NCBI GenBank assembly: GCA_045863235.1
Contig: BTUM01000016.1
Span: 53,527 to 117,526 of the forward strand
DNA: 64,000 nt
Source: Candidatus Xenobia bacterium
GTDB lineage: Bacteria > Vulcanimicrobiota > Xenobia > Xenobiales > QWHO01
Direction of reading: 5' to 3'
Shown: in pieces, positions 1-7,953 of the stretch
Layout: every line of letters begins with the position of its first letter
How positions within the stretch are numbered: position 1 is the first letter of the stretch
Notes under the pieces: generated by a model
What the model saw: the letters and a program-made list of their open reading frames with translations, nothing else
Told to the model about the DNA's origin: nothing
Database searches by the model: none
Position numbers and translations under genes: made by a program

Positions 1-474
1 GCAGGGACGGTCGAAGTCGCCCTGGGCAAATCCCATGCCGGCCAGCACGGTGCGGATGCGAGCGTCGATGGTCTGGGGCTCGGCGTGCTCATACTCGGCC
101 TGGAGGCGGGCGTAGCGATCCATCACCGACTTGAGCTCCGAGCCAGACAGCGTGGCCATCTCGCCCTCCAGAGCTCGCAACTCGGCCTCCATGGCGCGCA
201 CCCGGTCGAAGAGGGCGTTCATCTCCTCGTAGAGGCTCACCTCGGGGCTCAGCTGGCCCTCCTGGCCCAGGTAGCCCACCTCCACCCCGGGCGTGGACGC
301 AACGTGACCGGAGTCCGGCTCGAGCTGGCCGCTCAATATTTTGAGCAGGGTGGTTTTGCCGGTGCCGTTGCGGCCGATCAGGCCGAGCCGCTGCCCGGCC
401 ACCAGGGCCAGGTTGACCTTGCTCAGCACGGTGTGGCCCCCGTACGACTTGCTCACGTCCACCAGCGAGATCAT
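1..474 (-). CDS. ABC-F family ATP-binding protein, N-terminal part (runs off window start)
   Basis: Manual translation from ATG 474: MISLVDVSKSYGGHTVLSKVNLAL..GLIGRNGTGKTTLLKIL (Walker A), VGYLGQE, helical arm, then RIRTVLAGMGF. ATGA overlap with the upstream gene's stop. Confidence 0.85.
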   Translation of the reverse strand, partial: MISLVDVSKSYGGHTVLSKVNLALVAGQRLGLIGRNGTGKTTLLKILSGQLEPDSGHVASTPGVEVGYLGQEGQLSPEVSLYEEMNALFDRVRAMEAELRALEGEMATLSGSELKSVMDRYARLQAEYEHAEPQTIDARIRTVLAGMGFAQGDFDRPC

Positions 475-1229
475 AGAGCTCCGGCCGCCTTCAAGAGCGA
501 GCGCCCCAGCCGGATGCGAAGCTGAAAGAAGTCCGCCGGCACCGGGTGGGGCTGATCCACCAGCACGGCAAAATAGAGCGGGCCCTGCTCGCGCTCCACC
601 CAGCCCACCCACCAGCCATAATCGCGGTCGCGGGTGCGGGCCCAGCCGGTCTTGGCAAAGATCCGATCTTGCTGGAGGTCCATCAGGGCCACCACCGTGT
701 CCCTCGAGCGCTTCGAGACCGGCAGGCGCCCATCGTGCAGGCGTTCCAGGAACTCAACTTGCTCGCGGGGCGAGATGGCCAGGGGCCCGTCCAGCCAGAA
801 CCGGTCCACTCGCTTGCCGACCTGAGCGTTGCCGTAGCCAAGCTTCTCGACCCAGCTCCGCATGCGGTCAAGGCCCACCTGGCGAGCCACCTCCTGGTAG
901 TAGTGCACGGCCGAAACCCGGAATGCGCGGTCGAGGCTCATGTCCTGATTCCAGTTGGCGATCTCGCGCTCGACCCCGTCCCATTCGAGGTCCATGGGGA
1001 GCACGCCGCACTCGAGACCGATCAGCGAATTGGGGATCTTGAAGGTGGAGGCTGGCACGTAACGACGCTGGCAGCGATCAGGGTGAAACTCGCGAAACCC
1101 GTGCTCGCGATCATAGAGCACGGCCGCGCCGTCCACCTTCTCGGCGGCAAAGCAGGTCGCGAAGTCGATTTCACCTGCCACGGCCGGAAGCGCGAGCGTC
1201 AGAACGAGGAACCAGAGCCAGCCTTTCAC
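471..1229 (-). CDS. Class D (OXA-like) beta-lactamase / penicillin-binding family protein
   Basis: Signal peptide; PASTFK (SxxK), SAV (SxV), YGN, FWLDGPL and KTG motifs. Confidence 0.85.
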   Translation of the reverse strand: MKGWLWFLVLTLALPAVAGEIDFATCFAAEKVDGAAVLYDREHGFREFHPDRCQRRYVPASTFKIPNSLIGLECGVLPMDLEWDGVEREIANWNQDMSLDRAFRVSAVHYYQEVARQVGLDRMRSWVEKLGYGNAQVGKRVDRFWLDGPLAISPREQVEFLERLHDGRLPVSKRSRDTVVALMDLQQDRIFAKTGWARTRDRDYGWWVGWVEREQGPLYFAVLVDQPHPVPADFFQLRIRLGRSLLKAAGAL

Positions 1230-1289: not shown

Positions 1290-1574
1290 ATGAAGAGAAT
1301 GCTGCTTGCTCTATTGCTGGCGTTGCTGCTCCCCGCTCTGGCAGCGACGTCCGCGGCCACCTTCACCGTCCAGGGCATGTCCTGAGGGGCCACCTGCGCC
1401 AGCCGTGTGCGGGCCATCGTGAGCAAATTGCCCGGAGTGAAGTCGGTGAATGTGAATTTCGGCAAGTCCACTGCCGAGGTGCGCTTCGATGACGCCATAA
1501 CCGACCCCCAGAGACTTTCCCAGGGCCTCAAGGACGCCAGCGGAGGTCGCTACTCGATGCAGGTTCGCCCCTGA
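1290..1574 (+). CDS. Secreted heavy-metal-associated (HMA, MerP/CopZ-like) protein with in-frame TGA at the first metal-binding Cys; candidate selenoprotein
   Basis: MKRMLLALLLALLLPALA-ATSAATFTVQGMS-[TGA 1383-1385]-GATCASRVRAIVSKLPGVKSVNVNFGKSTAEVRFDDAITDPQRLSQGLKDASGGRYSMQVRP. The HMA pattern continues in frame after the TGA. Confidence 0.75.
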
Positions 1575-7593: not shown

Positions 7594-7699
7594 CGGTCAA
7601 CCTCCTTGTCGTGTCTGCATCTTACCACCTCGAGCAGGGCTCCCCCAAGTGGGCAGGTTAAGAAAATGAAACCGATGTGAATTGTTTGTATCCGACTTG

Positions 7700-7875
7700 C
7701 GAACAGGGGAGGGCGCCAGTTGGCGAGAAGTGGGCCATGCGTCGGGAGTTCGGGAAGCCGGTGAGAATCCGGCACGGTTGCCGCCACTGTAAGCGAGGAG
7801 TCCGGAAGCGCCACTCTCCCGAGGGGAAGGCCTTCCAGGAGGGCACGGATCCGCGAAGTCAGGAGACCGGCCCGG
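7700..7875 (+). ncRNA. Cobalamin (B12) riboswitch
   Basis: Core elements GGGAA-GCCGGTGAGAATCCGGC-ACGG..GCCACTGTAA, GCCACT..GGGAAGG and the B12 box AGTCAGGAGACCGGCC, directly upstream of a BtuFCD-type transporter. Boundaries approximate. Confidence 0.9.
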
Positions 7876-7953
7876 CGCGCGACCAGCGGCCCCCTCCGGA
7901 CAAGAGGCGGGCAGGGCGCCGCTGAGCCTGGAAGAGAGGCAGGGCGCCCCGAA

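Follow-up and report, generated by a model that had tools for sequence, protein, structure and literature searches.

What does an HMA-domain reading frame with an in-frame TGA at its metal motif encode? In the 64,000-nucleotide stretch of Candidatus Xenobia bacterium DNA analysed here (the window), a frame opens with ATG at 1290 on the + strand, meets a TGA at 1383-1385 and continues to a final TGA at 1572-1574. The internal TGA could mark a broken gene or a base-call error, or it could specify selenocysteine (Sec) in an intact gene that had gone unannotated. Our analysis indicates that it is very probably the latter, and suggests that the product handles soft metals outside the cytoplasm.

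The frame continues beyond the TGA as an HMA domain

A preliminary description of this DNA held that the frame runs past the TGA as a complete HMA fold to 1574, and both Pfam and AlphaFold agree. The translation around the codon reads MKRMLLALLLALLLPALAATSAATFTVQGMS*GATCASRV...MQVRP. The read-through protein scores 52.1 bits against Pfam HMA (PF00403; cut-off 24.8), its AlphaFold model has the order beta-alpha-beta-beta-alpha-beta with a pLDDT of 88.9, and its top Foldseek match is MerP (1afi, 1osd; E 4.5e-7, rmsd 1.3-2.2), with MerP and Cu-ATPase domains as the nearest structural neighbours. Alignment to solved HMA domains places the TGA on the first Cys of GMxCxxC, as had been proposed, with one residue inserted ahead of the second Cys; the ligand spacing is U-x3-C and departs from the canonical CxxC. 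The second ligand codon is TGC at 1395-1397, so the motif contains a single TGA. In the secondary structure of the model, Sec32 is predicted to lie on the loop that leads into helix 1, with Cys36 in that helix's first turn. The features of the locus are as follows.

1290..1574, + strand: coding sequence of 94 aa with the TGA as Sec, comprising a signal peptide and a single HMA domain (sequence, Pfam, AlphaFold; TGA kept in congeners G004, 95%, and G001, 90%)
1290..1343, + strand: predicted Sec-pathway signal peptide with MKR, a Leu-rich core and P-A-L-A, cleavage near residue 18/19 (pattern by eye and hydrophobicity score)
1359..1565, + strand: HMA (ferredoxin-like) domain, residues ~24-92, with a conserved C-terminal G-R-Y (Pfam PF00403 at residues 24-82, AlphaFold, Foldseek)
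1374..1397, + strand: putative metal or redox motif G-M-S-U-G-A-T-C (U-x3-C) (sequence; invariant ligands in alignments)
1383..1385, + strand: in-frame TGA, probable Sec codon (conservation in congeners, contigs and homologues)
1398..1416, + strand: likeliest core hairpin of the SECIS, placed 18 nt behind the TGA, with CGUGU at 1404-1408 as its apical loop and an extended fold at 1389-1424 (-10.5 kcal/mol, published model, covariation in 12 hand-picked genes; weak for the single gene)

We saw no clear Shine-Dalgarno sequence ahead of the ATG at 1290, and a search for a sigma-70 promoter and an intrinsic terminator at this gene found neither. TGA ends 2332 of the 3540 long ORFs of the genome and is its commonest stop codon, which extends the earlier remark that TGA is an ordinary stop elsewhere and shows that there is neither genome-wide recoding nor an altered genetic code.

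The genome encodes Sec machinery and the gene appears intact

If the TGA were a nonsense mutation or a base-call error, one might expect a genome without Sec machinery and homologues that all carry TGC or TGT. Neither is the case. The genome (8.36 Mb, 97.6% complete) encodes selA, selB, selD and a tRNA-Sec (anticodon TCA), all on one contig (C23), and homologues of the HMA gene carry both TGA and Cys at the ligand position. SelD of the same genome has a TGA at its own Sec site, as does FdhA, whose codon precedes a clean hairpin of 7 bp (loop GGUCU).

The gene is present in two of four congeneric genomes, both of which retain the TGA (95% identity in G004, 90% in G001). Sequencing error, a concern raised in the preliminary description, is answered in part by assembled contigs: those of runs X2 and X3 and of the RNA run X10, which belong to three studies, span the codon and show no other letter there, but the contigs of X1, the probable source, have a hole over 1377-1385. 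The RNA evidence likewise consists of assembled contigs, and no contig of run X9 was placed on the gene. Downstream of the TGA, pN is 0.03-0.05 and pS 0.11-0.18, with similar values upstream (three sequences, small counts), a pattern indicating that the part after the TGA is under apparent purifying selection.

TGA-bearing members occur in several phyla

Within the class Xenobia, 44 genomes yielded 23 genes of the family: in 19 of them, spread over 15 genomes, the first ligand is encoded by TGA, and in four it is Cys. Each of the four Cys genes lies in a genome with a TGA copy as well. The window genome is one of these; its Cys paralogue lies at C109:14943-15209 (L010, L061) and reads GMTC-REY-C. 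All 15 TGA-bearing class genomes are selA-positive and no member was found in the 14 selA-less class genomes; lineage confounds this absence, since the five selA-positive genomes of their taxonomic family have no member either. A search of 401 genomes of the phylum returned no TGA-bearing full-length member outside the class among the matches listed (all but 71).

A DNA pattern scan across GTDB gave 55 loci. Eight were dropped as chance matches, seven were class genes already known, and 40 were real (41 domains, 37 genomes), with titles naming Planctomycetota, Verrucomicrobiota, Poribacteria, Myxococcota, Binatia and Bdellovibrionales. We found selA in 36 of these 37 genomes and in five of the eight genomes with chance loci. 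Altogether 51 of 52 genomes with a TGA gene carry selA (15 from the class and 37 others, among which kin are not independent). An even sample of Planctomycetota, in which 187 of 251 genomes have selA, contains at least 29 genomes with a checked TGA at the ligand position, all selA-positive, judged from the best 150 of 230 matches. Three of the 29 were already in the search model, and seven further TGA rows were left out of the count; three rows (G664, G636:C38 and G446:C50) were dropped because their TGA lies upstream of an ordinary CopA domain.

The 160 distinct HMA domains collected comprise 78 with U-x3-C (one a chance row), 10 with U-x3-U, 11 with U-x2-C, one with U-x2-U, 12 with C-x3-C and 48 with C-x2-C, counts that do not amount to a census because the searches were seeded with U-first motifs; no C-x-U form occurs among them. 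G29, U/C32 and C/U36 are invariant (alignments A2 and A3), and in the class alignment R87 and Y88 are at least 90% conserved and GM[ST] and an aromatic residue in loop 5 are kept. By hydrophobicity score, 63 of 64 family genes have a hydrophobic N-terminus, the remaining one (L058) having an N-gap there, and the N-termini are of signal or lipoprotein type. The product of the window gene is predicted, with high confidence, to be exported and its signal cleaved.

A tree of the 160 domains is poorly resolved. All real Sec domains but one fall in a weak cluster (SH-aLRT 84) with Cys domains mixed in; the tree was built from 72 columns by a quick method, with one chance row (L095) left in. Gene callers miss the U-x3-C HMA family: a search of 5.8 billion protein clusters (51-165 aa) returned only one 55-residue fragment, which starts after the TGA. 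A profile search of protein representatives gave only multi-HMA proteins among the best 150, which carries no information on this family.

Several members are larger. HMA domains are fused to thioredoxin (L120, L292) or DUF3179 (L130) domains, and tandem HMA repeats with a TGA each were seen three times over in L303:4000-4800 (G571) and twice over in L304 (G556) and L315 (G585). In L120:2-1252 (- strand), a single ORF at the contig end of a single MAG encodes two HMA domains, U-x3-U and U-x2-U, whose four ligand positions are all TGA, followed by thioredoxin and PDZ domains. Four Sec in one chain would exceed the two to three per bacterial protein stated in a 2026 review (PMC13188914).

A hairpin signal is strong across the family and weak in the single gene

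The preliminary description had drawn a possible SECIS-like hairpin with loop CAGCCGT behind the codon. The bases that it listed are present, but they fold no better than chance and the register is probably wrong. With loop CAGCCGU at 1400-1406, all five windows tested are less stable than their shuffles on average (z +1.3 to +2.3), and the first two loop positions lack the G that the bacterial SECIS model requires (PMC13188914). The upper helix in this register shows no two-sided changes, and its covariation is reached by 78 of 500 shuffles of the 12 rows described below.

A loop CGUGU at 1404-1408 probably fits better. We applied the published limits (loop of 3-9 nt, a G within its first two bases, 16-37 nt after the UGA, at most -7.5 kcal/mol), and this hairpin lies within them at 18 nt and -10.5 kcal/mol; so do hairpins at 151 of 300 random TGAs of this GC-rich genome, and all four Cys genes pass the strict model as well. 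The strict filter has no discriminating power in this genome. Among 12 genes that share the CGUGU register, changes on both sides occur in four of the six pairs, and none of 500 shuffles attains the covariation score; this is no more than suggestive, because the genes were hand-picked for that register.

For the family as a whole, each gene's best-scoring hairpin whose loop has G within its first two bases was set against those of synonymous recodings that encode an identical peptide. Native sequences score above the mean of their recodings in every TGA gene, 19 of 19 from the class and 41 of 41 from elsewhere, or 60 of 60 (kin not independent). Control windows downstream gave 9/19 and 5/19 in the class and 22/41 and 21/41 outside it, and the Cys genes gave 2/4. 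The window gene alone gave p=0.084. The signal is therefore strong at the level of the family and weak for the single gene.

Together, the Sec machinery, the TGA shared across phyla, the Cys homologues and the family-level hairpin signal support the earlier proposal of Sec insertion into an exported protein of HMA fold; its putative metal binding is read from fold and motif.

The U-x3-C protein resembles known HMA proteins and belongs to none of their families

HMA selenoproteins are already known and the recoding mechanism here is ordinary; the U-x3-C spacing is new. Catalogued HMA or metal-related selenoproteins include a UxxU metal-binding protein, a cation-transporting ATPase E1-E2 (UxxC) and a putative mercuric transport protein (PMC13188914, PMC9312934). 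The U-x3-C family is absent from Table 1 of PMC13188914, and a literature search, with supplements outside its scope, found no paper describing it. A table of the GOS survey lists two "MerP" selenoprotein sequences (PMC2398784), and these may belong to the same family.

The UxxU metal-binding family (NF041115) likewise combines a short domain of HMA type with a Sec in its metal motif, and weak matches to it come from all 22 proteins in the class alignment (best E 1.7e-19). However, its motif is UxxU with two Sec, whereas the window protein has U-x3-C with one and scores 38.8 bits where the cut-off is 95. That level is also missed by all of 34 further members, of which the best among the matches listed scores 62.8. 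A metagenome scan for GM[ST]-U-xx-U produced one HMA match in 118 loci (L180), which could be assigned to no NCBIfam family at 1e-8; the tree therefore lacks a genuine NF041115 member.

Like MerP (TIGR02052), the window protein combines a signal peptide, predicted here, with a single HMA domain. It differs from MerP in score (53.9 bits against a cut-off of 92.55), in having Sec and x3 spacing where MerP has CxxC, and in context, since the merT, merA and merR surroundings are absent at this locus and the genome has no merT. It shares a stand-alone HMA domain with GMxC with CopZ/Atx1, yet misses the three NCBIfam cut-offs (NF033794, NF033795 and NF047957; 51.1/95, 43.2/91 and 31.1/85 bits). CopZ is cytoplasmic, in contrast to the window protein with its predicted signal peptide and its Sec. 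Heavy-metal transporters with Sec at a heavy-metal-binding Cys position have also been described (PMC13188914); those are membrane proteins or fusions, unlike this small, soluble and predicted exported protein, which scores 24.7 bits against the 375 of NF045683 (MerT_CopZ_Se). The window protein thus resembles MerP and CopZ in its predicted working but belongs to neither, nor to NF041115 or NF045683.

The gene is not tied to its neighbours

The HMA gene is flanked by an FHA gene and a class D beta-lactamase-like gene. In G001, all that is left of the latter, which lies upstream, is its first 29 codons, and the HMA gene is kept; in the congener G002 (97% complete), the same flanking genes are present and the HMA gene is cleanly absent. 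Absence from this syntenic locus indicates that the gene is dispensable, and the two cases together suggest that it is not tied to its neighbours. The beta-lactamase-like gene of the window (471-1229, - strand) is divergent, separated from the HMA gene by a 60-bp gap, and scores 228.5 bits against a cut-off of 250. Farther along, at about 7597-7925, an untranslated-looking stretch precedes a run of ABC substrate-binding, permease and ATPase genes (7954 onward) and appears to resemble a cobalamin riboswitch in sequence.

None of 101 flanking ORFs around the first 64 family genes encodes a Mer or Cop protein, and no conserved partner gene was found among them. The window genome (97.6% complete) has no MerT match and no MerA above cut-off. 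Two metal-related contexts did emerge, both in the roughly 29 Planctomycetota genomes collected later. In G515 (L292/L297), the genes directly ahead of a member encode a MerR-family regulator and a fusion of CopZ, MerT and HMA, and in G556 a member sits within a cluster of CusA/CzcA, ArsR/SmtB and adaptor genes. The G515 run consists of the regulator, the fusion, a U-x3-U HMA-thioredoxin lipoprotein and a small thioredoxin, with no MerA among the ORFs scanned.

The favoured reading is an exported soft-metal carrier or buffer

In CopZ and MerP, Cu(I) or Hg(II) is bound by a pair of ligands placed in this way, on the HMA loop and in helix 1. A selenolate is more acidic and softer than a thiolate. 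By analogy with those proteins, we infer from the fold and motif that Sec32 and Cys36 would bind a soft metal. We favor, at a probability of roughly 0.6, a stand-alone exported carrier or buffer of Cu(I), Hg(II) or Ag(I), bound between Sec and the nearby Cys, because the fold is nearest to MerP and Cu-ATPase domains and because of the metal contexts in G515 and G556. In such a scheme, SelB and Sec-tRNA would decode the UGA through the hairpin 18 nt downstream, the exported HMA chain would lose its signal peptide near residue 18/19, Sec32 and Cys36 of the mature domain would serve as a pair of soft-metal ligands, and the protein would carry or buffer metal outside the cytoplasm.

The same exported selenoprotein might instead use its U-x3-C pair mainly as a redox couple, cycling between selenenyl-sulfide and selenol-thiol in envelope thiol chemistry. 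This is the most serious competitor, if a somewhat unlikely one. Most other candidate selenoproteins of the genome are thioredoxin-like or have signal-like N-termini, the fusions to thioredoxin and DUF3179 point the same way, the 101 flanking ORFs contain no metal-transport neighbour, and MerP itself has a solved oxidised form (title of 1osd). However, the fold is HMA and not thioredoxin, GM[ST] and the loop-5 aromatic residue are retained, and two members sit in mer-like or cus-like clusters. We consider it improbable that the selenoprotein has some other job, such as the transport or storage of selenium or an organometal, or a role as chaperone for the cofactor of an exported enzyme; the tandem and multi-Sec forms (three U-x3-C domains in L303, four ligand TGAs in L120) and the dispensability of the gene, absent in G002, would suit such a role, but a conserved partner gene was not found.

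Still more improbable is that the TGA is a true stop, in a pseudogene or by base-call error, or is read through as Trp or Cys in place of Sec. The weak hairpin of the window gene, the X1 hole over the codon and the Cys paralogue on C109 all lean toward it. They are set against the same TGA in three species, three independent studies and several phyla, the apparent purifying selection downstream, a TGA that always falls at a ligand position and nearly always in selA-positive genomes, and the use of TGA otherwise as the main stop codon.

Returning to the carrier reading, a bolder extension is possible, although we hold it only tentatively: the proteins may form a widespread, uncatalogued family of exported U-x3-C/U-x3-U HMA selenoproteins that scavenge Hg or Cu outside the cell with a selenolate site and a widened loop, independently of mer and cop operons, and with tandem forms of three or four Sec per chain. 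Such a family would range over 15 of 44 Xenobia and at least 29 of 251 Planctomycetota genomes, and would extend to Verrucomicrobiota, Poribacteria, Myxococcota and Binatia. In any case the gene adds a widespread, predicted exported selenoprotein to sludge, marine and soil lineages. Because one genome has both Sec and Cys paralogues, it provides a very small natural test pair, a way to ask what selenium contributes at an HMA metal site and whether selenols buffer mercury or copper outside the cytoplasm.

Other candidate selenoproteins in the same genome

The window genome (G000) contains further candidates. Four carry UxxC (C4:132404-132958, C86:9884-10576, C45:13992-14672 and C14:16733-17263; L318-L321); three of these are thioredoxin-like by NCBIfam, two of them with clear signal-like N-termini, and one is peroxiredoxin-like by eye. 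Three signal-peptide proteins at C51:52573-53580, C13:63873-64409 and C70:2790-3506 (L322, L324 and L325) are candidates with an in-frame TGA in RWC-U, TCPV-U and SPT-U-KVC, respectively, and have no NCBIfam match at 1e-6. In another signal-peptide protein, at C56:24729-25379 (L323), which likewise matches no NCBIfam family at 1e-6, two closely spaced TGAs (S-U-P-G-U-P) directly follow the signal peptide; this could be a double selenoprotein not described before.
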